64,000 nucleotides of DNA. Origin: a virus. Below the pieces are notes generated by a model. It saw only the letters and a program-made list of their open reading frames with translations. It was not told the origin of the DNA and ran no database searches. Made by a program: the position numbers and the translations under genes. Where the stretch lies: IMG/VR virus record IMGVR_UViG_3300045391_004887, positions 1-64,000 of that record; one strand, given 5' to 3'. This document shows, piece by piece, positions 2,359-19,296 of this stretch. Positions within the stretch are counted from its first letter, which is position 1. The number at the start of each line of letters is the position of its first letter.

Positions 2359-2841
2359 TCACTTCAGCAGCACGCTGTCAGCTGCTTCCCGCAGCGACTT
2401 GCGCTGGTTGATCTCGTCGAGCGTGTGGAAGCAAGCCGCCCATCCGATCGTGTCCGATTCGAAAGCCTTGCGATCTACGGCGCCGTGTTTGCCGCCCGCG
2501 AGCGCGACATGCCGTGCGTAAAGGGCGCGTAGTTCCTGCTCGAGCAGGCACGTGCGCGCTTCGGCGAGCGCAGCTCGTGTCGTCAGCTGAACGATCAGCG
2601 GGTTGAGCTTCAGTTCGAGCGCTCGCGACGCGATGACACCATCGTCGGTCGTTGGCGTCGGGTCGGGCTCGCCGAGCGGTGGTGGAGGTGGCGTGATCGC
2701 GCGCTGCGAAGTCGTGCGCGGCGGGTCAGCGGGGTGCTCGTTATGCGCGAGACCGCCGAGATAGCCACCGGCGCCGACCATGAGCGCAGCCAGGCCGTAG
2801 CCCAGCGACTGCCACATGCCCTTGGTACTGCGCTCCGCCAT
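2359..2841 (-). CDS. N-terminally membrane-anchored, Pro-rich-linker plus coiled-coil protein (i-spanin-like, last gene of the lysis block)
   Basis: TM segment GMWQSLGYGLAALMVGAGGYLGGLA, then PPRTTSQRAITPPPPPLGEPDP, then a helical C-terminus. Position is downstream of the amidase. Confidence 0.55.
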   Translation of the reverse strand: MAERSTKGMWQSLGYGLAALMVGAGGYLGGLAHNEHPADPPRTTSQRAITPPPPPLGEPDPTPTTDDGVIASRALELKLNPLIVQLTTRAALAEARTCLLEQELRALYARHVALAGGKHGAVDRKAFESDTIGWAACFHTLDEINQRKSLREAADSVLLK

Positions 2842-2860
2842 GCATCACCGCCAAAGCTCC

Positions 2861-3196
2861 CTACCGACCGGCGGCGCTGACTGCCCACTGGAAGATCTGA
2901 ATGAGCGCCCACACCCCCATCGAACCGGCGCCGAACGCGATCCATCCGGCCGAGCGCGTCGCCAGCTTCTTGATCGTGTCGAGCGTGTCCTTCGTGTCTT
3001 TCCAATTCTGCTCGAGCACCGCGACGCGCTCTCCGACACTGGTCGAGTGCTGCAGCGCGTGACCCGCCAACGCATCGCTGCGAACAGCGGAGTCGTGGAC
3101 GCTGAGCAGCGTTCGGAGTTCGGTCATCTTCAGCGAATCGTCCAAGTGCTCCTCCGCGCTCGGTCGTGTCTGCACCGCGCTCACCGCTGCAGTCAT
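2861..3196 (-). CDS. Small protein with C-terminal TM helix (holin / lysis accessory candidate)
   Basis: Start trimmed to ATG 3196..3194, which forms an ATGA overlap with the stop of 3193..3627. C-terminal segment AGWIAFGAGSMGVWALIQIFQWAV is hydrophobic. Confidence 0.55.
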   Translation of the reverse strand: MTAAVSAVQTRPSAEEHLDDSLKMTELRTLLSVHDSAVRSDALAGHALQHSTSVGERVAVLEQNWKDTKDTLDTIKKLATRSAGWIAFGAGSMGVWALIQIFQWAVSAAGR

Positions 3197-3627
3197 CGAT
3201 CCCCCTTGGGCTTGTTCCATGCACCGCGCACCTTTCGTGTCGCGTCCTGCTCGTGGGCGAGCACCGGGGCCGCGCGGGGCACGGTCGGGTCATCGTTGCC
3301 GACGGGAGTGGATACTCCCTTGGGAAGCGGGCGCGGCGGGATCGACGTTGGGAGCCGGGCGTCCGCCTGCAGGTTCTCGAGCACCTCGCTGACCGCGGGC
3401 GTCAGCGCGTGGACGCCGAGCGTTCCTGCGAGCACCCGAACGCAGCGCTTGAGCGCATCGTTGCGACGCGTTGCGACGACAAGCTCGATCAGCGCGTTGT
3501 GCACCGTCTCGCCTCGGAGCTCGACGCGCAGCGCTGGGCTCAGCCGATCGTTCAGCAGATCGATGAGCTCGGCGTGCCTGACTTCCGCGAGCACCTGCGC
3601 TCCGCGCGCGTCGGTGTGATGGCTCAC
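3193..3627 (-). CDS. Hypothetical protein (144 aa) inside the lysis block
   Basis: Only the C-terminal half of track ORF 3193..4074 looks coding (VSHHTDARGAQVLAEVRHAELIDLLNDRLSPALRVEL...). GTG 3627..3625 makes a GTGA overlap with the stop of 3624..3914. Confidence 0.55.
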   Translation of the reverse strand: MSHHTDARGAQVLAEVRHAELIDLLNDRLSPALRVELRGETVHNALIELVVATRRNDALKRCVRVLAGTLGVHALTPAVSEVLENLQADARLPTSIPPRPLPKGVSTPVGNDDPTVPRAAPVLAHEQDATRKVRGAWNKPKGDR

Positions 3628-3914
3628 CGCTTCTTCCCGCGCGGCATCTGGAAGGGTGCCGGGCGCTCCGAGCCCGGGATCACCACCTTCGCCACCGGAT
3701 TGTCGGGGACCGTTGGCCTCGTGGAAGCGTCGGATTCGGTGGGCGTGAAGTGAAACTCCAAGTCCTCCTCGGGGAGCGTCCGAAGTAGCTCGTCCTCGAT
3801 CGCTTGCTGGTCGATCGGCGGCTTCGGCCCAGCGCCGGCGCGGGCCTCGATGAAGGAACGCAGACTCCGCAGCACGGAGCGCGGAAGCAAAAGCACGCGG
3901 GTGGGCCAGCGCAT
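3624..3914 (-). CDS. Hypothetical protein (96 aa)
   Basis: ORF-track protein. ATG lies 3 nt after the amidase stop. Acidic central part (IEDELLRTLPEEDLEFHF). Confidence 0.5.
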   Translation of the reverse strand: MRWPTRVLLLPRSVLRSLRSFIEARAGAGPKPPIDQQAIEDELLRTLPEEDLEFHFTPTESDASTRPTVPDNPVAKVVIPGSERPAPFQMPRGKKR

Positions 3915-3917
3915 GGG

Positions 3918-4562
3918 TCACTCGTCGTTCCGGCCGAACAGCCGGCTGCGGAAGCTCTCGAGGTTCAGCGCAGGCCCCGGGTCGAGCTTGCGCTTGGGAG
4001 CGATGTCGTCGTGGCCAACGACCTCGACGATGCTCGGATAAGCGGCCATGAGCGCGCGGCAGACTTCCTCGCACGCTTCGATCTGGTCGCTCGTGTACGC
4101 GTGCCAGCCTCGGACGCCGCCGCCGTGCTTGTGCTCAGCGATCACGACGTCATCGCCGCCGACCTTCGCGCCCCAGGCCGTCACCCAGCCGACCGCTGTG
4201 CGGTGGAGCAGGCCAGCGTTGTCGAGCTCGATGCCGATCGAGAACTGGTTCAGCCCGTGCATGGGCACGTGTGCGTAGCCTCGTGCACCGCCCAGCACGA
4301 GCGAGCTTTCCCCCGCATGCCACGCGCGTTGATCGAACGGCACGAGCTGAGCGATCGATCCGCCGCGCCCGATCACGATGTGCGCCGACGCCTTGGCCGC
4401 TGGGTCGCAGAGCCACTTGCAAGACTGCTCGAAGCTGCGGCCGGCGGTGTAGTGCAGAACGATCACGGCCGGCGCCACGAGCTCGCGCGCGTGGTTCGGC
4501 GACGCGATGAACGGAATCGGCGCACCGTCGTCGCGGTGCAGTAGGTGGTGCTCGACCTTCAC
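3918..4562 (-). CDS. Endolysin, N-acetylmuramoyl-L-alanine amidase (Amidase_2 / PGRP-T7 lysozyme fold)
   Basis: Motifs LHYTAG, AHIVIGRGGSIAQLVPFDQRAWHAG, NQFSIGIELDNAG, VVGHDDIAPKRKLDPGP. Start trimmed to GTG 4562..4560 (GTGA overlap with the stop of 4559..4849). The upstream part of track ORF 3918..4853 is Arg-rich junk. Confidence 0.85.
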   Translation of the reverse strand: MKVEHHLLHRDDGAPIPFIASPNHARELVAPAVIVLHYTAGRSFEQSCKWLCDPAAKASAHIVIGRGGSIAQLVPFDQRAWHAGESSLVLGGARGYAHVPMHGLNQFSIGIELDNAGLLHRTAVGWVTAWGAKVGGDDVVIAEHKHGGGVRGWHAYTSDQIEACEEVCRALMAAYPSIVEVVGHDDIAPKRKLDPGPALNLESFRSRLFGRNDE

Positions 4563-4849
4563 TTCGGGGCCCTCCGCTTCGCACGCTCGAGCGCCGCTGC
4601 GATCGCCTTCTCCTCGCCGACCTTCGTCAGCGCGCGGCGCGCGCGGGGACTCTTCGCGATGATGCGGTGCGAGCTGTTGCGCGCCAGAGACTGGTTCTCG
4701 TCGTCCTCGCCCTGGTGCCAGAAGCTCGCGCGACTGACCACGTGATCGGCTTCGAGCCGAACGAGCCAGCTGTGCGCGACCTTGATCGCGGCGAGCAGCA
4801 GACCGACCAGCGCGAGCTGCACGGCTTCGTTGTGCAGGACGTCGTCCAT
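4559..4849 (-). CDS. Single-TM small protein immediately upstream of the endolysin (holin candidate)
   Basis: MDDVLHNEAVQLALVGLLLAAIKVAHSWLV has one hydrophobic helix followed by a charged tail. Translationally coupled to the amidase. Confidence 0.5.
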   Translation of the reverse strand: MDDVLHNEAVQLALVGLLLAAIKVAHSWLVRLEADHVVSRASFWHQGEDDENQSLARNSSHRIIAKSPRARRALTKVGEEKAIAAALERAKRRAPK

Positions 4850-5776: not shown

Positions 5777-6346
5777 TCAGCACTCCACCAGCTGCCCGTC
5801 GCGCAGCCAGCCGTGGTAGCCGGGAGTGCCGTGGAAAAGGATGCTGGGGCTTGCCGTTACGCGCGGCGCTTCACCGGTGCGCGTCCAGCGCCCGCCGCCG
5901 CTCGAGATGCTGTCGACGAGCCAGTCTCCCGCCGGCGTCTTCACCACGAGAGAGCGCCCATCCGGGCCCTTGAAGGTGTCTTCGTACCAAGGCGCAAACC
6001 ACATCGCGCCCGGCGGCGCGTCGTCGAGCGTGAACAGCTCGCCGGTGTCGACGCGGCGCCAAAGCCGGTCGACGTTGTACTGCCATTGGTCCGTGTCGGC
6101 GAAGGCGTAGCCGCAACCGCAGTGCGTGGGCCACAGCGGATCGCTGTGGTCCTTCGCATCCATGCCGTAGCCATTGGACTTGGGGTCGAGCGGGAACGCG
6201 ATGTGTCCGCGCACCGCGCTCGCGTTGTGGTAGCCGTGCGGCAGCGGGCATTTCTGGCCCTCGCCGCTCCAGACGAAGCGGCGGAGCGACTCCTGCGCCT
6301 GATCGCTCGGCTCGAGCAGGAAGCACTGGATGACGCCGCCGCTCAC
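5777..6346 (-). CDS. Cys/His-rich hypothetical protein (189 aa), C-terminus reminiscent of the DUF6527-type phage family
   Basis: Start trimmed to GTG 6346..6344 (GTGA overlap with the stop of 6343..6768). Contains CPLPHGYH, HCGCGY and the C-terminal ...WTRTGEAPRVTASPSILFHGTPGYHGWLRDGQLVEC. The family assignment is from memory only. Confidence 0.65.
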   Translation of the reverse strand: MSGGVIQCFLLEPSDQAQESLRRFVWSGEGQKCPLPHGYHNASAVRGHIAFPLDPKSNGYGMDAKDHSDPLWPTHCGCGYAFADTDQWQYNVDRLWRRVDTGELFTLDDAPPGAMWFAPWYEDTFKGPDGRSLVVKTPAGDWLVDSISSGGGRWTRTGEAPRVTASPSILFHGTPGYHGWLRDGQLVEC

Positions 6347-6768
6347 GGCTCGTACGCCTTGTTGCTCCGCACGTGCACGCCCCTCGCATCGAGGAAGCTC
6401 TGCGCGCGCGCTGCGCTCGCCAAGCGCTCGGGGCTCGAGCTCACGCCAGGCCGCGTCCACTCGCTCTTGAGCAGGTCGACCAGGCAGGAGATGACGCTGG
6501 CGCCGTGCTCGCGCGCCAGCTGATCGAGCTTCGCGCTGGCGGTGGGTCCGATCGCGGTCTGCGTCGCCTCATCGCCCGGCACCTCGGCGCTCTGCAGGAT
6601 CGTGCTGACCGTGCTCACCACGTCGTCGATCACGGGCCCGCAGTCGAGCGCGGTCTGCGGCCAGTCGATCTTGTCGGGGTGACAGCTGTAGGCCGGCACC
6701 AAGCAGGTGGAGAGCAGCAGGACGCAGCCGAGCGCCGCGCCGCGAAGGCGTCGTTGGATGGCACGCAT
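6343..6768 (-). CDS. Secreted / lipoprotein-like small protein (141 aa)
   Basis: Internal ATG 6768..6766 preceded by GAGG. MRAIQRRLRGAALGCVLLLSTCLVPAYSC has a charged n-region, a hydrophobic core and Cys candidates (LLSTC / AYSC; neither is a canonical lipobox). Confidence 0.6.
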   Translation of the reverse strand: MRAIQRRLRGAALGCVLLLSTCLVPAYSCHPDKIDWPQTALDCGPVIDDVVSTVSTILQSAEVPGDEATQTAIGPTASAKLDQLAREHGASVISCLVDLLKSEWTRPGVSSSPERLASAARAQSFLDARGVHVRSNKAYEP

Positions 6769-11431: not shown

Positions 11432-12103
11432 TCACCCTCTCCAGTAGATCGCCGCACGACTGCGGTTTGCCGGGTTGTCCCACGTGCCGTCAGGCTGCTC
11501 TGCAGCCCACGTCACGCCATCGAGAACGACGATGATGTACTCGCAGATCACGTGCGCCGGCTTCCACTTGCGCACCAGCGCGCGCACGCTCCGCACTTCG
11601 TCGAGCGTGGCCGTGGAGCCCCACGTCCTTTGTCCCCAGAGCGTTCCATCGCCCCAAAGCCAGCGCGACCAAGGGTGACCGGTGATGACGACGTAGAAGC
11701 GTGACCAGTTGTCGACGTCCGCGTCCCAGTTCCAGCCCGGAGTCGTGCGGTCTTTGACTTCAGCTGTGAGTCCGAGCGCGGCGAGCTGGTTCTCGATGCA
11801 GGTCGTCGTGCCTGCGTTCTTCCAGGTCTCCCAAGCGTCGCGCAGTCGAGCTGTGTAGGTCTCGTCGGTATCGATCGGATACCGCGGCATCGAGCGACCG
11901 TCGCCAAGGTACGGCAACGCGCTCGGCGGGAACGTGTCCGAGCCGAAGAACCTCGCCTTGATCGCTTGGTTACAGCCTTCGGCCGCGGCGTCGAAGAACA
12001 CGCCCAGCGTTCCCGGCAGCACGCGCTGACCCGAGTCGCCCTGAAAGACAGTGGGCGACAGCGCGTCTGCCGCGTAGCGCTGGAAGGTCGTTGGCGCGGT
12101 CAT
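11432..12103 (-). CDS. Baseplate / tail protein in the position of Mu gp48 / P2 gpI (223 aa)
   Basis: Follows the baseplate J gene with a 3-nt gap. Trp-rich, balanced composition. The call is by synteny only. Confidence 0.6.
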   Translation of the reverse strand: MTAPTTFQRYAADALSPTVFQGDSGQRVLPGTLGVFFDAAAEGCNQAIKARFFGSDTFPPSALPYLGDGRSMPRYPIDTDETYTARLRDAWETWKNAGTTTCIENQLAALGLTAEVKDRTTPGWNWDADVDNWSRFYVVITGHPWSRWLWGDGTLWGQRTWGSTATLDEVRSVRALVRKWKPAHVICEYIIVVLDGVTWAAEQPDGTWDNPANRSRAAIYWRG

Positions 12104-12106
12104 GGA

Positions 12107-13273
12107 TCAGAGCGCGGCAGGCAGCACCGGCATGTCCGGCGTGCCCATCACCGCAACCTGGGTCTTGAGCATCGCGATGTTCGCCGCGGGCGCGGTCAGC
12201 ACGACGTTCACCACGCCTGGGATCGAGAACAGCGCGTAATACAGCTGGCCGATCAGCAGCTCGCCAGCGTCGCCGTCGAAGGACTTCACGCCGCCGATCG
12301 GAACAGCCCGCAAGAACGCGTTGAGCGTCGCGAGCACCACGTCTCCGAGCACGACGGCATCCATCGCCGGGTCGCAGTAGACGGTCCCGGTGAAGTTGAC
12401 GGGCAGATTCGTCGCGCTCAGCGCCAAGACGTCAGCGCAGAGCGCGCGCCGGCGCACGAGATCGGTCGTGCCGTCGATGTAGTTCTGGACCGCAGCGACG
12501 ACAGGCCCTGCAACGGCGCCACTCGCCCCCGCGAGGTAGACATCGAGCGTGCCGGGGCCACGTGGGTTCTGAGCGTCGACGAACACGCGCGTGACAGCCG
12601 GATCGGCCTCGCGCGCCCAGTTCTCGTACGCTTCCGCAGGCCCGTTGACTCCGAGCCCTGCCCACTTCGTGCGGTCGCGCTGCTGCAGCGAGGCGTCGGT
12701 CTCTTGGTCCGCGCCCGAGCGCGTGATCCACGTGCCCGGACCGAGGTCGGGGTTGTTGACCGTGACCCCGGGCGGGCCTTCGACGCGCACGGTGAGCGTG
12801 TTGATCGGAACATTGCCGTCGTTGCCGCCGACTTCCGCTTCGAAGTACAGCGGCAGCACGCCACTCAGAGCGAGCGTGCCGCCTGTGGTGTTGCGGTAGC
12901 GGCGACCATCGGCGTCGCTCACCACCACTTCGTCGACGCCGATCGTGTGGGGACCGGTGCCATCCGAGTCCGTGAGCGAGACGACTCCGAGCGTCTTGAC
13001 CGCCTCGAAGCGCTGATTGTCGTAGTGGCTGTCGGAGAGCAGGTCGAGCCAGCCGCCGCTGGAGAGCGAGAGCAGGCCCGCGCGCGCGAGCTGGTCCGCA
13101 ACGAGCAGCTTCTCGGATGCAAGCTCGGCAAAGGCCTCGAACATCGTCCGCTGCAGGGACCCGCTCTGCCAGCTCTCCACCGGGAAGCCGTGGCCGCGCA
13201 ACAGATCAAAAAGGAAGGCGAGCGCCTGGTCCTTCGTGATCGGTACGATCAGCTCGTCGACCGAGACAGCCAC
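12107..13273 (-). CDS. Baseplate J-like protein (Mu gp47 / P2 gpJ family, 388 aa)
   Basis: Length, position and sequence character fit (…ETDASLQQRDRTKWAGLGVNGPAEAYENWAREADPAVTRVFV…GTLDVYLAG…). Confidence 0.8.
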   Translation of the reverse strand: MAVSVDELIVPITKDQALAFLFDLLRGHGFPVESWQSGSLQRTMFEAFAELASEKLLVADQLARAGLLSLSSGGWLDLLSDSHYDNQRFEAVKTLGVVSLTDSDGTGPHTIGVDEVVVSDADGRRYRNTTGGTLALSGVLPLYFEAEVGGNDGNVPINTLTVRVEGPPGVTVNNPDLGPGTWITRSGADQETDASLQQRDRTKWAGLGVNGPAEAYENWAREADPAVTRVFVDAQNPRGPGTLDVYLAGASGAVAGPVVAAVQNYIDGTTDLVRRRALCADVLALSATNLPVNFTGTVYCDPAMDAVVLGDVVLATLNAFLRAVPIGGVKSFDGDAGELLIGQLYYALFSIPGVVNVVLTAPAANIAMLKTQVAVMGTPDMPVLPAAL

Positions 13274-13274
13274 G

Positions 13275-13661
13275 TCAGGTGTTCTCCGTGAGGAGCTCGA
13301 CCGTCAGCGCGCTGGCTGCGATCGTGAGCTTGAATGGACCGTCGCCGTCGGTGACGGTCAGGCGCACCGTGAGCGTCTCGCCGATGAAGGCGGCCTCGAC
13401 GTCCACGCTGTCGACGCGCTCGTCCTTCTCGCACTCGACGCGCACCTGCATCTCGAGCGCGCCAGGCTGCGGCGCCGGCGCGCTCAGGAACTGGCGAAGG
13501 TCGAGCCCGTAGTCGAAGTCGTAGAAGAGCGAGCCGTGCGGCGTGGTCAGCCTGTGAAGCAGGGCCTCAGCCAGCCCACGGCGTCCCGAGACGAGCCCTA
13601 GCGTCGGGAGCACGTCGAGAACGCCTCCCAGGTCGACGCCAAACTCTGTGCTTTCGGCCAC
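13275..13661 (-). CDS. Baseplate wedge protein, GPW/gp25-like (128 aa)
   Basis: …GLAEALLHRLTTPHGSLFYDFDYGLDLRQFLS… resembles the gp25/W motif. GTG start has GAGGG 8 nt upstream. Immediately precedes J. Confidence 0.65.
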   Translation of the reverse strand: MAESTEFGVDLGGVLDVLPTLGLVSGRRGLAEALLHRLTTPHGSLFYDFDYGLDLRQFLSAPAPQPGALEMQVRVECEKDERVDSVDVEAAFIGETLTVRLTVTDGDGPFKLTIAASALTVELLTENT

Positions 13662-13674
13662 TTAGTGCCCTCGT

Positions 13675-13704
13675 TTGACCGAGGCCACGCAGGCCCCCCA
13701 TACT
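13675..13704 (+). promoter_or_regulatory. Sigma70-like promoter candidate for the plus-strand insert (TTGACC-N18-CATACT), predicting a leaderless or very short-leader mRNA
   Basis: TTGACC at 13675-13680 and CATACT at 13699-13704, with the ATG at 13711. The track's TTG 'start' at 13675 is this -35 box. Confidence 0.4.
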
Positions 13705-13710
13705 TTTGCG

Positions 13711-14619
13711 ATGCGACTGGCGCTCGTACTTGCGATCGCGCTGCTCGGCTGCTCGAGCAGCCACGGCGGCGACCCCGAATCCCCTGCAGACGACGGTGAC
13801 CCGCGAACCGCTTCCGCGCGCGGATCGAGCGCATCGAAGAGCACCGATCACAGCGATGGAGTCGGTTCACTGAGGGGAACAAACGACGCCGGCGCCGATC
13901 AGGACGAGGAGTCCGCAGGCAGCAGTGCTGACGTGCCAGTGGACACGGGCCACGACGCTGAGCCGCCGAATTCAGCTGCCGGGATGGGCGCGGAGGAGAC
14001 GGCTGGATCTTCGGCTGCGCCCGGTGCCGGCAGCTCTGCCCCGATGATGGGCGCTGCGGGTGCCGGCGGGAGCGCTCTTCCGCAGGCGGGAAGCGGATCG
14101 CCGACGATTCAATGCAGCGACGACGACTCCGATGGGGTGTGCGACGACTTGGACACATGCCCCGGCGGCTCGGACGCGGATGCGGACCGTAACGGCTACG
14201 CCGATGGGTGTGATCAGGTGTTGGCGAAGTTCCAGATCCCCAAGGCAACAAAGACCATCGCCGACGTGTCTTCGCGCATCCGCATCAGCGGATCGCTCGC
14301 TGAATCGATGTCGCTGTTCACCACGTCGCCGTTGACGAGCGCGGGAACGACCTCCTTCGATGTCGACGGTGGCCCGGAATACGTGATAGCCGCGGCTGCT
14401 CGCCTTCAGTCTGGAGCGGCCGCCATCAGCGCTTCAATCGAGGCGAATGGTTCGGTGGGTGTTTCTGGTCAGCGCTGGTTCGTGAGCAACCAAAACGCCG
14501 ACATGACCTCGAAGACAATCACGCGCTTCGTGCTCGTAGTCGATCCTCTCGAGCTCGTGCCGAACGGAACGAAGACCGACGTGACCACCGGTGGGCGCTG
14601 GGAAATCCGCGGCTACTGA
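13711..14619 (+). CDS. Lipoprotein with two thrombospondin-type-3-like Asp/Cys calcium-binding repeats (302 aa)
   Basis: MRLALVLAIALLGCSSS is a canonical lipobox (LLGC). Followed by a long D/S/G/A-rich linker, then DDDSDGVCDDLDTCPGGSDADADRNGYADGCD, then a beta-rich C-terminal domain. Opposite strand to all neighbouring genes. Confidence 0.8.
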   Translation: MRLALVLAIALLGCSSSHGGDPESPADDGDPRTASARGSSASKSTDHSDGVGSLRGTNDAGADQDEESAGSSADVPVDTGHDAEPPNSAAGMGAEETAGSSAAPGAGSSAPMMGAAGAGGSALPQAGSGSPTIQCSDDDSDGVCDDLDTCPGGSDADADRNGYADGCDQVLAKFQIPKATKTIADVSSRIRISGSLAESMSLFTTSPLTSAGTTSFDVDGGPEYVIAAAARLQSGAAAISASIEANGSVGVSGQRWFVSNQNADMTSKTITRFVLVVDPLELVPNGTKTDVTTGGRWEIRGY

Positions 14620-15216
14620 GTGGACGCGAAGCAGAAGGAAGACCGGCGCAACGGTGCGATCGGCTGCCTCGTTGTCGCTGCGCTTGGGCTCAGCTGGTGC
14701 GGCCTGTGTCGATCGGGTTCTGACCGGCGACCTTCGGTAGCATCCGTGCCGACGGAGGCGGCGAAGCCTGTCGTGATCGAACCTCCCGATGATCGACCGC
14801 CAGCATGCAACTACCTGCGGCCGTTCGGACTGCCGACGGGCGACTTCTGGCAGCCCGACCCTGAATCTCCCTATCAATGCGTGTCGACGTACAAGAAGCT
14901 TCCAAGCTCAGGCCCGCTCGAGAACCACATGACGTACGCAGTCCTCGGCGAATCTGGGGGCATCGTGCATTCGATGACGCTCGAGCTTGATATCTACGAC
15001 CGCCGCACTGCGGAGGCGGCGCGAGAAGCCCTGATCGTCCCGGCGTCCCAGCTCTGCAGCAGGGTATTTGGTCAGATGATGCCGGACTCGATGTTCAAGG
15101 CGATCCGCGCGGGCAAGCCGCTGCTGCTCGAAACGGGGGCCGGCAAGATGTCCCTTGAGCGATCGAACTGGCCAACCGGTCTCGGTTACGACCTCAAGTT
15201 TTCGATCGAGCTCTAG
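14620..15216 (+). CDS. Signal-anchored / secreted hypothetical protein (198 aa), coupled to the lipoprotein gene
   Basis: GTG immediately after the TGA of 13711..14619. N-terminal KQKEDRRNGAIGCLVVAALGLSWCGLC hydrophobic segment, followed by a globular-looking remainder. Confidence 0.7.
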   Translation: MDAKQKEDRRNGAIGCLVVAALGLSWCGLCRSGSDRRPSVASVPTEAAKPVVIEPPDDRPPACNYLRPFGLPTGDFWQPDPESPYQCVSTYKKLPSSGPLENHMTYAVLGESGGIVHSMTLELDIYDRRTAEAAREALIVPASQLCSRVFGQMMPDSMFKAIRAGKPLLLETGAGKMSLERSNWPTGLGYDLKFSIEL

Positions 15217-15219
15217 AGA

Positions 15220-15672
15220 TCAACTCCAGTTGACCGGCGATCCGCCGACGCTCGGCGTTGCGGTCCCCGTGATCATCCAGTCATCGATCGCCGACCTGAA
15301 GTCCGACGCTGCGTCGGCGTGCGTCTCCGGCTTCGGTTCCGCCGCGAACAGCGTCGCGAATCCCAGAGGACTCGGAGGCGGCGTCGCGACGAACGCTGGC
15401 GCCATCCCAGCTCCCACGGTGGTCGCGAAGGTGAGGAAGGCCGCTTCCATCGCCGCCGCCGTAGCGGCTGCATTCACGTTCGCGAACGCCGCTGCAAGAG
15501 CTACCTGCAATGCGGCTGCCGCGGTCGTCACCTGCGTGGAAGTCGGAATGATGCCAGTCGCATAGCCATCGAGCGCATCGGCCCACTGCTGCGCGCAGTC
15601 GGCGATCGTCTCTCCCGGCGTCTCGGCAAGCTCTTTGAGATCGTCCTCGAGCCCGGCGGAGTCCAGAGCCAT
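15220..15672 (-). CDS. Hypothetical baseplate-region protein (150 aa)
   Basis: ORF-track protein, Ala-rich but with acidic, structured ends. Lies between the hub/spike gene and the W-like gene. Its stop is only 3 nt from the stop of the convergent 14620..15216. Confidence 0.55.
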   Translation of the reverse strand: MALDSAGLEDDLKELAETPGETIADCAQQWADALDGYATGIIPTSTQVTTAAAALQVALAAAFANVNAAATAAAMEAAFLTFATTVGAGMAPAFVATPPPSPLGFATLFAAEPKPETHADAASDFRSAIDDWMITGTATPSVGGSPVNWS

Positions 15673-15680
15673 AGAAGCGC

Positions 15681-16808
15681 TTAGGCTCCTGGTGTCGGCG
15701 GTCCGCTCGGTCCCATGGCCGTCGGATGAACGTGTGTGCTGAGTGCCACCGGATGCGTGTCAGCCTTCGCTGTGACTTCGCCCGTAACTTCGAGGTCACC
15801 CACAACACGGAGCTTCGCGCCAACGCCGGTCAGCGTGATCGTGATCTGCTGCACGGGCGCGCCAGCATCCCACATCCCCGCGCGCGGCCGCGCCGGATCG
15901 CCAGCATCGAAGAACACCCGCGCGCGCGCGCCGTTGGCTGGCATCGCTGTCACGCCCGGGATCCCGAACACCATCTTGAGGCGGTCGAGTCCCTTCCATT
16001 TGCCGGAGACGAGCCGATCGTCGACGAGCAGCGTGATCTCGTCGCCCGACGTCGCGACCACCTTTCCCGGATAGAACCGGCTGAGCTGCAGCTTGGGCAG
16101 CACCAGCTCGCGGATGCGCTTGCCGACGATGCCGAGTAGTCCGCCCTGCCCCTTCTCCTCGTCGAAGTAGATGTCCTGGCGGAGCGATTTCGCCGTAGCG
16201 ATCAGCGCGGTGCGCTCGATGCGCTTGCCCTCGAGAGTCGTGCCCGGCCGCGCTTGCGGTGCCTCGGTCACGCCGTCGTAGGCAATCGTGAGCTTGCGTT
16301 CCTGCGGGTTGTAGCTCTCGGTGATCGTCTTTGCCGTGACCGGTGGCCAGGTCTCCGGGCCGATCCACAGCGTCCCCGCGCGCGTGATGCGCCACTCGTA
16401 GCCGAGCCCGTCGGCGATCTGGCGCAGCGCGAGGTGTGTCTCGCCCTGCATGCGAGACCAGCGCTCGTAGCGCTTGGCCAGCAGGTCAGCAGGGATCGCC
16501 GGGTCGAGCACCTCGCCCGACTCGCGAGCGATCGCCGTGAGCAGCGTGCCCACGGTGGGCTCGACGTACCACGCGGCCGGAAGCACCTTCGAGAGCCCGC
16601 CGCGGCCGCCGACGATGGTCCCCTTCCAGCGCCCTGACTCGATGTCTCCGAGCACCGCGGTGCCCACGAACTTCTCGCCATCGACGTCGATCGTAATCAG
16701 GCCGCTGAGCGCTTCGTCGGCGTCGACCTCGACGATGGCTGTCCACGAGGCGTTTCGGTTTTCGGCGATGCCGAGCTGGACGACCGGCTTGCCGTTCGCG
16801 GTGATCAC
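15681..16808 (-). CDS. Baseplate hub / central spike protein (Mu gp44-45 / P2 gpV-like, 375 aa)
   Basis: C-terminal OB-like segment …GARARVFFDAGDPARPRAGMWDAG… and terminal HVHPT spike-tip-like motif. GTGA overlap with the upstream gene. Confidence 0.7.
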   Translation of the reverse strand: MITANGKPVVQLGIAENRNASWTAIVEVDADEALSGLITIDVDGEKFVGTAVLGDIESGRWKGTIVGGRGGLSKVLPAAWYVEPTVGTLLTAIARESGEVLDPAIPADLLAKRYERWSRMQGETHLALRQIADGLGYEWRITRAGTLWIGPETWPPVTAKTITESYNPQERKLTIAYDGVTEAPQARPGTTLEGKRIERTALIATAKSLRQDIYFDEEKGQGGLLGIVGKRIRELVLPKLQLSRFYPGKVVATSGDEITLLVDDRLVSGKWKGLDRLKMVFGIPGVTAMPANGARARVFFDAGDPARPRAGMWDAGAPVQQITITLTGVGAKLRVVGDLEVTGEVTAKADTHPVALSTHVHPTAMGPSGPPTPGA

Positions 16809-17400: not shown

Positions 17401-19296
17401 CTACGTCCCGGCGTGCTCGCCGCCCTGGTTCAGCGCATCACGAACACCGGCCATGGCCGCGTCACGAACCTCGCGCATCTTCGCGCCAGCTCCGACGGTC
17501 AGGCTGATCTTGAACGTGTTGTACTGCACCACGCGGCTCGGTCCGCCGATGCGCGCTGCCGGAGCCTCGGGCGACGCCACGATCGAAGCGCCGCTGCGCC
17601 CGAGCTCGCCGCCAGCTTCCGCCGTGGCACCGTGCCTATCCTGCAAGCCGAGCATGAAGCCGTCGACGGTGTTCTGACCGTAGCCGCGCATCACCTTCGA
17701 TGGGCTAGCGATGCCGAGCACGCTCTTGAGCGAGTCGATCATCGTCGTGCCCATCGCCATGGCACCGTCGGCGAGCGCAGAAACGAGCGACTTCATGCCG
17801 TTGATCAGGCCCATCACCGCATCGCGGCCGGCCTTGTAGGTGGCCTTGCCGAGCCACACGAAGAACTCACCGATCTCATTGCGCCAGATGACGATCGCCG
17901 AGACGATGCCAGCGACCGCGGCCGCGATGCCGAGCGCCAGCGTGACCGGCGAGGTGACGATGGCCAGCAGCACGCCGCCGATCGCACCGAGCACCGTACC
18001 GATGACTGGAAGCGCGGCCGCGATGGCTCCGACGATCACGCCGCTGACCGTTGCGATGCCTCCGAACACGGTCCAGAGCGCGCTACCGATCGCGAGGATC
18101 TTCGGAAGGAACAGCACCACGGCGCCGAGCCCGAGCACCCACTTGCCCATGGGGGTCTGTAGGAACGCAACCGCCTGTCCGATGGCCTTCACCAGCTCGA
18201 ACACCAGCGCGAACGACTTCGCCACCCCGCGCCCGAAGTCATACCAGAGCTGCCGCTGGTCGCCGGCGAGGCTCGTGATGCCATCCATGCCCGCGAGCAC
18301 TTCGGAGAAAGCTGAGCCGAAGCCCGAGGCGAACTGCCGGGCCAGGTCGATCGCGACCGGCAGCAGGCCGACCACCTTGCTGACGAAGTCTCCGAACGAG
18401 GTCACGTCGAGCTGGCCGATCGCGGAGATCGCCGACTCGATCGCATCCTTGACCTTCTTCATGGCTGGCTTCGCGGTGTCAGCCACGCGCAGGAAGAACA
18501 GCTTCGGCGCAGCCATCAGCCGATCGATCGCGCCTCCAAGCGTGGCGCGCGATTGCTGCAGCGCGAACCCGCCGAGCTCGGTCTCACCGATCTTGTGCTT
18601 GACCGCTTCCTTGATCGCCGCGATGCCGACGTCGGCGCTCACCTTGCCCGCGGTGATGAGCGCGCGAACCTGGTCGTTGGTCTTGTTCAGCACCTTGCCG
18701 AGCGCCTGGTACACCAGCACGGTCGAGACGCCTGCCTCGGCGAGCTGCCCGACGAGCTCTTCGGACTGCAGCCGACCCTTGGCCTTGATCTGCGTGATGG
18801 CAGTGACTGCGCGGTCCGCCGCCTGCGCGTCGCCCGTCAACGCCTTGAGGTCAGCAGCGAGCTTGAAGACCTCTTCGCTCTGCCCGAGCGTGAACTGCGC
18901 GGCGCGAAGCTTGATGAACTTCCCGGTGACGTCCTCGACGTCCTGACCGAGCTCGCCTGCGAGGCGCACGCTGGTGCGGAACGCAACGTTGCCCGCGCCG
19001 GCGCCGCCGTAGAGGTACTTGAAAGCCAGGCGCGCGCTCTCGGAGAAACGCGCCATCTTCACCACCATCGCGGTGGTGATCGCGCCTACCGCCACGCCGG
19101 CTGCGCCGATGCCGAGCGCCGCCGCTTTCGCCCATCCGAGCGTCTTGTCCGCGGCCTTGTTGATGACCTCGAACGCCTTGCTCTTCTGCAGCTTCTGGAG
19201 CGGCTTCTGAATCCGCTCAAGCGAGGCGGCGATCGCGCGGGCGGGTGCTGACACCTTGTTGATCAGCGCGACGACGAAGCTTGCCTGATTGCTCAT
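17401..19296 (-). CDS. Tape measure protein (631 aa)
   Basis: Long helical protein with a central hydrophobic/Gly-Ala block (…GGIATVSGVIVGAIAAALPVIGTVLGAIGGVLLAIV…). Located between the chaperone and the baseplate genes. Confidence 0.85.
   Translation of the reverse strand: MSNQASFVVALINKVSAPARAIAASLERIQKPLQKLQKSKAFEVINKAADKTLGWAKAAALGIGAAGVAVGAITTAMVVKMARFSESARLAFKYLYGGAGAGNVAFRTSVRLAGELGQDVEDVTGKFIKLRAAQFTLGQSEEVFKLAADLKALTGDAQAADRAVTAITQIKAKGRLQSEELVGQLAEAGVSTVLVYQALGKVLNKTNDQVRALITAGKVSADVGIAAIKEAVKHKIGETELGGFALQQSRATLGGAIDRLMAAPKLFFLRVADTAKPAMKKVKDAIESAISAIGQLDVTSFGDFVSKVVGLLPVAIDLARQFASGFGSAFSEVLAGMDGITSLAGDQRQLWYDFGRGVAKSFALVFELVKAIGQAVAFLQTPMGKWVLGLGAVVLFLPKILAIGSALWTVFGGIATVSGVIVGAIAAALPVIGTVLGAIGGVLLAIVTSPVTLALGIAAAVAGIVSAIVIWRNEIGEFFVWLGKATYKAGRDAVMGLINGMKSLVSALADGAMAMGTTMIDSLKSVLGIASPSKVMRGYGQNTVDGFMLGLQDRHGATAEAGGELGRSGASIVASPEAPAARIGGPSRVVQYNTFKISLTVGAGAKMREVRDAAMAGVRDALNQGGEHAGT

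Follow-up and report, generated by a model that had tools for sequence, protein, structure and literature searches.

Results

A putative lipoprotein gene set antisense in a baseplate operon

The baseplate operon of the virus recorded in IMG/VR as IMGVR_UViG_3300045391_004887 is interrupted by two open reading frames (ORFs) of the opposite strand, the first of which, ORF1, encodes a predicted lipoprotein. The stretch analyzed here, positions 1 to 64,000 of that record (64,000 nucleotides [nt]), is called the window, and the two ORFs together with the promoter-like site in front of them are called the insert. Judged by its sequence, ORF1 is a member of a small, undescribed and constrained lipoprotein family, and genes of this family lie antisense, just upstream of the wedge gene gp46/W, in 7/7 phages whose gene context was readable. 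The best explanation of the whole, which we hold with about even confidence, is that ORF1 would act as an envelope-level block to superinfection, expressed from the prophage. Overall, the element is of an ordinary kind, an accessory gene for an envelope protein that a phage carries within a structural operon. The first-pass annotation, made from the letters of the window, had described the insert as a moron of two genes. What it observed was confirmed as a whole, and its interpretation as an extra pair containing a lipoprotein stood, while two further parts of that interpretation, a one-off moron and a fixed two-gene module, did not.

Architecture and coding status of ORF1

To define the features of ORF1, its translation was compared with known motifs, profiles and folds. 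ORF1 starts with the ATG at 13711, and the TTG at 13675 belongs to the −35 box of the promoter-like site. The N terminus of the product, MRLALVLAIALLGC, contains a basic and hydrophobic signal peptide followed by a lipobox of the form [LVI][ASTVI][GAS]C. The LLGC sequence that had been pointed out earlier is present, and its cysteine, the putative lipid acceptor, is residue 14 (nt 13750-13752). This cysteine is kept in at least 90% of 15 aligned family members, and the glycine preceding it is invariant in the six closest ones. ORF1 has, in sum, the sequence features of an exported lipoprotein, and its lipidation is predicted. The linker following the lipobox (residues 15-134, 120 amino acids [aa]) is acidic and disordered, as had been claimed, with an isoelectric point of 4.05, and it is rich in Gly, Ala, and Ser. 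After the linker the sequence continues as CSDDDSDGVCDDLDTCPGGSDADADRNGYADGCDQV and then as a 132-aa domain.

The two D-rich motifs that had been likened to thrombospondin type 3 (TSP3) calcium-binding repeats, DDDSDGVCDDLDTCP and GSDADADRNGYADGCD, are both present, but they are below the Pfam threshold for this repeat, because the ORF1 protein (P0002) was not matched by TSP_3 (PF02412, gathering cut-off 25 bits) even at E ≤ 10. Among its homologues, P0029 reached 37.4 bits with five repeats, and P0103 reached 15.8 bits. Since P0029 passes the TSP_3 cut-off and the ORF1 protein does not, the motifs of ORF1 are degenerate TSP3-like repeats, about two in number, which are recognized only through homology. 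The proposal that the C-terminal third, which ends with GGRWEIRGY, is beta-rich agreed with an AlphaFold2 model of this domain alone, which consists of nine strands and one helix (predicted local distance difference test score [pLDDT] 78, predicted template modeling score 0.75); the model of full-length ORF1 was poor (pLDDT 56). The fold of this domain was not matched by Foldseek, with best E values of 0.14 in PDB and 0.02 in BFVD and template modeling scores of at most 0.25; weak matches to a START/Bet v 1-like fold, with root-mean-square deviations above 11 Å, were distrusted. ORF1 had no counterpart in Pfam, PHROG, NCBIfam, or PADLOC, the sole PDB sequence match of ORF1 was the OmpA-family protein 5wtl (E 0.03), and Rfam gave no match in the region 13000-16000.

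The coding status of both ORFs was assessed with a codon log-likelihood trained on 20 confident phage genes, with 47 shadow ORFs of at least 150 aa serving as the comparison set. The score per codon was 0.09 for the whole of ORF1, 0.19 for ORF1 without its linker, and 0.115 for the whole of ORF2, while the shadow ORFs had a mean of −0.31 and a maximum of 0.061, and the minimum among the trusted phage genes was 0.20. The GC content at third codon positions (GC3) was 0.73 in ORF1 and 0.75 in ORF2, as compared with 0.85-0.88 in the neighboring genes. Because their codon scores are above those of all shadow ORFs and below those of all trusted genes, ORF1 and ORF2 look coding but foreign, and the data fit two real genes with foreign codon usage. 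The three other plus-strand ORF candidates in this block, at 3166, 7954, and 44090, scored in the shadow range, which upholds the claim that the insert holds the only plus-strand genes in this block of minus-strand genes.

The ORF1 family and its conserved position

Among 5.8 billion proteins searched, four were homologous to ORF1, with 36-52% identity, and a profile search of 1.84 billion representatives brought the number of full-length members to ∼14. The other ∼450 profile matches covered the D-rich repeat only, and many of the matches hold PF02412 together with PF00691. The full-length members have a common plan, in which a short signal peptide with the lipobox cysteine is followed by a variable, acidic or Gly-rich linker, then by one to about seven TSP3 repeats and the motif NG[YF]AD.CDQVLW, and finally by a ∼130-aa domain ending with RWEIRGY or a close variant. 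Fifteen members, which are 24-53% identical, keep the lipobox cysteine, the module D-x-D-x-D..C..CP..D.D..G..D.C, and the C-terminal W..GY; the conservation is highest at the C terminus, and the N-terminal linker varies. The number of cysteines beyond the signal peptide is even, which fits an oxidizing compartment. The near-identical contigs L001 and L002 do not differ from the window inside ORF1 or ORF2. Scans of genomes and metagenomes returned almost only TSP3-repeat proteins, with no full-length member in the genome scan, and a DNA pattern for RWEVRGY followed by a stop codon had zero matches in IMG/VR. Every family member of known context is phage-borne and located in the baseplate slot described below.

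The gene context was readable in seven phages, which were the window (with L001 and L002), L003, the P0006 contig, the P0004 contig, L021/L024, L025, and L026; genes on the fetched loci were called with a crude caller based on GC3 and length. One small gene intervenes between the lipoprotein gene and gp46 in L025, and likewise in L026. The window and the L003, P0006, and P0004 loci have a gp25-like W (PF10934), and L021/L024, L025, and L026 have a true Mu gp46 (PF07409), accompanied in L025 by gp45 (PF06890). When the window was compared with L003, whose W is annotated as PF10934, the identity was 42% for the lipoprotein, 73% for gp46/W, and 64% for J, which shows that the lipoprotein diverges faster than its neighbors within this clade. 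When the window was compared with L021, L025, and L026, the lipoprotein was matched with E values of 5e-16 to 3e-10, a cross-clade score that is owed partly to the D-rich repeats; gp46 was unalignable, and J was matched only at E > 1e-3. These alignments indicate that one cargo is present at one slot in two very different baseplate lineages. The idea of a one-off moron was thus not borne out, as the insert belongs to a conserved family found at the same junction in seven phages of two lineages.

The small gene between gp46 and the lipoprotein gene of L025 (1341-1808, minus strand) encodes a 155-aa protein with the motif KIGFTTNL, which is reminiscent of T5orf172/GIY-YIG-like domains. It is possibly an endonuclease-like mobile gene that occupies the same slot.

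Occupancy of the slot in related phages

To place the window among other phages, its J protein was used for comparison. The closest cultured phages, with 35-40% identity, were Thermus phage Riverbug, Meiothermus phages MMP7 and MMP17, and Myxococcus phage Mx4. J did not support assignment to a Myxococcota host, as the best homologues in 401 Myxococcota genomes had 38-40% identity, which is no better than the Thermus, Meiothermus, and Mx4 phages. The comparison with relatives agreed with the earlier suggestion that the insert is extra to the operon: in Mx4, Riverbug, and most of the 23 IMG/VR relatives found through J, the order hub/spike, W, J is unbroken. As would be expected for a moron, the genes flanking the insert are adjacent in relatives, with the spike gene leading directly to W in Mx4, Riverbug, L034, and L042, and with gp45, w150, and gp46 in uninterrupted order in many Mu-type loci, and the composition of the insert is unlike that of its surroundings in both GC3 and codon score. 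The ORF1 family was absent from 23/23 of these IMG/VR relatives. In L040, a J-related IMG/VR phage, a different antisense pair is located immediately upstream of W (5846-6546, minus strand in the locus orientation); its products are a membrane protein of 102 aa, in which CxxC pairs resemble a zinc ribbon, and a Cys-rich lipoprotein of 131 aa whose lipobox is LAAC. The loci compared mark the junction just upstream of gp46/W as a cargo slot, both in Mu-type baseplate operons and in related ones of contractile-tailed phages.

The convergent gene on the other side of the insert encodes w150, a 150-aa Ala-rich protein. Its homologues were found in 19 IMG/VR loci (L073-L091; 40-59% identity), where the order is gp45, w150, gp46, gp47. 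Only the L021 contig has both w150 and the lipoprotein among these loci, and a w150 homologue with 51% identity adjoins the lipoprotein gene in L021 and L026. The possibility that w150 and the lipoprotein moved as a cognate pair was rejected because 18/19 w150 loci are without the lipoprotein. No match to w150 was found in Pfam, PHROG, NCBIfam, PADLOC, or GenBank phages, and the protein may be a so far undescribed part of the baseplate or one associated with the spike. Its C terminus is nearly invariant (WMxTGTAxPxxGGxxVxW). What the window has in common with L073-L091 is limited to w150 and the ∼40 C-terminal residues of the spike; W, J, and I are shared only with Mx4/Riverbug-type loci. Because w150 and the spike apex are of the Mu type, and W, J, and I of the Mx4/Riverbug type, a mosaic recombination joint coincides with the cargo slot (window 13662-15672).

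Promoter and transcription signals

The promoter-like pair TTGACC-N18-CATACT, which had been said to end 6 nt before the ATG of ORF1, was found as claimed. It is the single promoter-like site on both strands of the region 12500-16500, where 0.3 such sites would be expected from shuffled sequences. The simplest reading is that the ORF1 mRNA would be leaderless, as predicted from the promoter spacing, because the start codon begins 7 nt downstream from the −10 box, where transcription usually starts. No Shine-Dalgarno sequence was found at any of the lipoprotein loci compared. Promoter-like sites upstream of the lipoprotein gene were also seen in L003, L026, and L025 (Table 1). No terminator-like site was found on the plus strand after ORF2, in agreement with the first-pass annotation.

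In L003 the promoter spacer is a perfect 16-nt palindrome, CCCCGATCGATCGGGG (3782-3797), that extends into the end of the −35 box. This palindrome looks like an operator, and it has no counterpart in the window.

ORF2

The GTG codon of ORF2 directly follows the TGA of ORF1, and the stop codon of ORF2 (15214-15216) is 3 nt from that of the convergent w150 gene (15220-15222), both of which had been noted before; the two ORFs are in the same reading frame. ORF2 may start farther downstream, as JGI called the gene from V43 (14746) on L002, an identical contig. The predicted product has a basic N terminus, one hydrophobic segment (residues ∼12-30, by hydropathy), and a 168-aa soluble part. Homologues of ORF2 were not found in the 5.8 billion proteins, and ORF2 is missing at the P0006, P0004, L021, L025, and L026 loci. 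In L003 its place is taken by an unrelated ORF with the same topology, that is, a basic N terminus and a hydrophobic segment. Hence, the claim of a fixed two-gene module was not borne out, as ORF2 is an orphan that is missing in most relatives and swapped in L003. The junction of ORF1 and ORF2 reads TGAGTG (14617-14622), and read-through of the TGA would fuse both proteins. The stop codon of ORF1 appears genuine, because the family always ends with RGY.

It could be that ORF2 is not a gene, or that only its distal two-thirds is, so that the unit would consist of ORF1 and a 0.6-kb untranslated tail. We consider this somewhat unlikely. The collection of proteins in which ORF2 has no homologue does not contain even its own record, its first 42 codons have a negative codon score, it is without a Shine-Dalgarno sequence, and open frames of its length are common at 67% GC. 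On the other hand, the codon score of the whole ORF2 exceeds those of 47/47 shadow ORFs, its GC content follows the order GC3 > GC1 > GC2, its frame was called as a gene on L002, and its N terminus is a textbook combination of a basic stretch and a hydrophobic segment; the presence in L003 of an ORF of different sequence and the same topology in the same place also argues for a gene.

Gene neighborhood

The source record of the window is 91,316 bp long, has direct terminal repeats, and is rated 100% complete in IMG/VR. The phage encodes a tyrosine integrase, a Mu-like morphogenesis set (Portal_Mu, Mu F, and protease), and a RecET module; no rve transposase was found in the 91,316-bp record. 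The coordinates of the tail genes, which are all on the minus strand, are consistent with the earlier placement of the insert between the 150-aa gene and the W-like wedge gene (Table 1), and W is the first late gene downstream from the insert.

The 375-aa hub-spike protein resembles Mx4 p61 (hub-like) in its N-terminal part, and Mx4 p62 (spike) and Riverbug gp12 in its C-terminal part; the gene is a fusion of proteins that are encoded separately in Mx4 and Riverbug. The protein aligns over its full length with the products of a 400-aa gene in L034 and a 372-aa gene in L042, each of which stands directly before W, and its C terminus has the HVHP apex motif common to Mu gp45-type spikes. A lysis cassette of four genes (2359-4849, minus strand) encodes an Amidase_2 endolysin (3918-4562), a 96-aa protein with an N-terminal transmembrane segment, a 119-aa protein with a C-terminal transmembrane segment, and a 160-aa i-spanin-like protein (2359-2841) with an N-terminal transmembrane segment, a Pro-rich stretch, and a coiled coil. 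No obvious o-spanin was found in this cassette.

Table 1. Coordinates of the insert and its neighbors, in minus-strand order of the tail genes, and promoter-like sites at other lipoprotein loci
Feature	Position	Strand	Remarks
Tape measure	17401-19296	−	
196-aa protein		−	Between tape measure and hub-spike
Hub-spike fusion, 375 aa	15681-16808	−	Matches Mx4 p61/p62 and Riverbug gp12
w150, 150-aa Ala-rich protein	15220-15672	−	Convergent with ORF2; unnamed family
Insert: putative σ70-like promoter	13675-13704	+	−35 TTGACC 13675-13680, N18, −10 CATACT 13699-13704
Insert: ORF1, predicted 302-aa lipoprotein	13711-14619	+	Lipobox, linker, TSP3-like module, beta domain
ORF1, TSP3-like calcium-motif module	14113-14220	+	Residues 135-170; four Cys
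ORF1, C-terminal beta domain	14221-14616	+	Residues 171-302
Insert: ORF2, 198 aa from GTG	14620-15216	+	Orphan
W, gp25-like wedge (sheath-initiator) gene	13275-13661	−	PHROG baseplate wedge families
J	12107-13273	−	
I	11432-12103	−	
Fiber genes		−	Beyond I in minus-strand order
L003 promoter-like site			TTGACC-N17-CATAAT-N6-GTG; hexamers and 6-nt gap kept, spacer diverged
L026 promoter-like site			TTGGGT-N18-TAGGCT-N6-ATG; weaker
L025 promoter-like site			TTGGCC-N15-GACAAT-N5-ATG; weaker

Discussion

The explanation that we favor starts with transcription of ORF1 from its own σ70-type promoter as a leaderless mRNA. Such expression would not depend on the late operon and could take place in a lysogen, which is possible because the phage encodes an integrase. 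The antisense orientation would insulate the gene, and no terminator would be needed, because read-through from the cargo promoter would yield only antisense RNA of the hub genes. After induction, strong late transcription would run over the cargo promoter. The ORF1 protein would be lipidated and, having Ser at position +2, sorted to the outer membrane. Judged from its sequence it has four parts, namely a predicted lipid anchor at the N terminus, an acidic stalk that is long, flexible, and possibly stiffened by calcium, one or more disulfide-braced TSP3 calcium repeats, and a beta-rich head of ∼130 aa whose fold is unrecognized. The tethered head could bind either a component of the host envelope or an incoming tail tip, which would block the adsorption or the periplasmic DNA-entry stage of the same or related phages. 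ORF2 would be a lineage-specific accessory, probably anchored in the inner membrane, and made by termination-reinitiation at TGAGTG.

Several features of the insert are the same as those of the morons found in tail operons, such as HK97 gp15, lambda lom, and bor. Like them, it is extra to the conserved structural genes that flank it and is missing in relatives, its composition is atypical, it comes with a promoter-like site of its own, and it would provide an envelope protein to a temperate phage. In contrast to these morons, ORF1 is antisense to the operon, without a terminator, and has a predicted leaderless mRNA, and it is conserved at one junction across very divergent phages rather than sporadic. 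Among phage proteins that act at the envelope, T5 Llp, Cor, and Ltp work by blocking adsorption or DNA entry. T5 Llp, the blocker of FhuA, is the closest in logic to what is proposed here for ORF1, as it is a phage lipoprotein whose gene is beside the tail-tip and receptor-binding genes. It is, however, a compact protein of 7 kDa, while ORF1, at 302 aa, combines a stalk of 120 aa with TSP3 repeats and a head domain unrelated to Llp, and no sequence or fold similarity was found between the two. The llp gene adjoins the receptor-binding protein gene of T5, which favors their co-segregation (bioRxiv 10.64898/2026.03.26.714494). This placement is a precedent for linkage, and a similar logic of co-segregation of blocker and tail tip would apply to the ORF1 slot. 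Ltp is made by the Streptococcus thermophilus phage TP-J34 as a prophage, and entry is the step at which it takes effect (PMC3952083). Like ORF1, Ltp has a lipid anchor, a spacer, and a globular domain, while it differs in its Gram-positive host, the location of its gene in the lysogeny module, and its helical-repeat domains, and no homology between ORF1 and Ltp was detected. Bacterial surface and OmpA-family proteins with TSP3 repeats (PF02412) share with ORF1 the D-rich calcium-binding repeat with flanking cysteines; ORF1 differs from them in having no OmpA domain, about two degenerate repeats, and the RWEIRGY domain, which is found only in this phage family.

A number of observations weigh against an envelope-level exclusion function. 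ORF1 has no homology in sequence or fold to known exclusion proteins in Pfam, PHROG, NCBIfam, PADLOC, PDB, or BFVD, and with its 302 aa and long stalk it is unlike the small lipoproteins Llp and Cor. The family is rare, with no member in 50,697 GenBank phages or in the 401 Myxococcota genomes. The fast divergence of the lipoprotein would fit an arms race, and it would equally fit a relaxed constraint on the linker. Upstream of the lipoprotein gene of L021/L024 there is no convincing promoter, and leaderless GTG starts, of the type predicted for L003, are poorly used in some bacteria. Finally, the sorting rule and the diderm envelope are assumptions.

The question arises whether ORF1 could instead be a lysogenic-conversion factor unrelated to exclusion, which would serve in calcium-dependent adhesion, in matrix binding, or in tethering of the outer membrane to peptidoglycan. 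These are the roles assumed for bacterial OmpA-family proteins with TSP3 repeats. Such repeats are common among surface proteins of cells and members of the OmpA family, as is reflected in the many profile matches with both PF02412 and PF00691, and the sole match of ORF1 in PDB is to a protein of this family; the promoter-like site of its own and the temperate lifestyle would suit conversion as well. Nevertheless, the family members of known context are all phage-borne and in the baseplate slot, full-length members were found neither in the 401 Myxococcota genomes nor in the scan of the genome collection, and the other cargo of the slot, in L040, is also envelope-directed, a pattern more typical of phage-phage competition. 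We therefore regard the conversion function as rather unlikely.

Other functions of the pair were judged to be still less probable. It is quite improbable that it acts late, in lysis, either as a substitute for spanins or by masking receptors on debris and so protecting the progeny. The i-spanin-like gene in the lysis cassette, which has no visible o-spanin partner, could speak for such a role, and in formal terms the topology of ORF1 and ORF2 matches that of a lipoprotein of the outer membrane and a type II membrane protein. But the lipoprotein gene is oriented opposite to the late operon and is 9 kb away from the lysis cassette, it is the first of the two in gene order, the mature ORF1 protein has 288 aa as compared with tens of residues in o-spanins, and ORF2 is absent in most relatives and has no coiled-coil-like features. 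A two-component spanin was rejected on this architecture (size, distance, orientation, and a dispensable ORF2). The arrangement, in which a small and variable gene is tightly coupled to the end of a lipoprotein gene, also brings to mind a lipoprotein toxin with a downstream immunity gene. SitA/SitI cassettes of this kind sit on myxobacterial Mx-alpha elements, and the nearest cultured relatives of the phage by J include Myxococcus phage Mx4. This interpretation is hardly credible, however, as the conserved C terminus and variable N-terminal linker of ORF1 are the reverse of what is seen in polymorphic toxins, most members have no such downstream gene, ORF2 has the look of a membrane-anchored, extracytoplasmic protein, and no toxin domain was detected. 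A toxin of the SitA/SitI type was rejected on the grounds of the conserved C terminus and a downstream gene that is not obligatory, being absent in at least four of the six other phages whose context was readable.

The proposed block to superinfection could be extended to the family as a whole. In this bolder form, to which we give little credence, the ORF1 family would be a new class of entry blockers for diderms, in which a head tethered to the outer membrane by a calcium-stiffened stalk spanning the periplasm would intercept the spike, w150, or the tip of the tape measure. The gene would be kept at the junction of spike and wedge genes for the co-segregation of blocker and tail tip, and the slot between gp45 and gp46 would be dedicated to envelope-directed anti-phage cargo.

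If ORF1 does act as an envelope-level block, then an unrelated and structurally new lipoprotein family would join the few envelope-level exclusion proteins that are known. The junction upstream of gp46/W would be a predictable site at which to seek backward-facing genes of lipoproteins and membrane proteins, so that the role of the cargo in the baseplate slot becomes a testable question across many phages. The insert would also be an example of how antisense placement, combined with predicted leaderless transcription, could provide compact expression from a prophage without a terminator. The fixed antisense position and the recurrence of envelope-directed cargo merit a modest follow-up.

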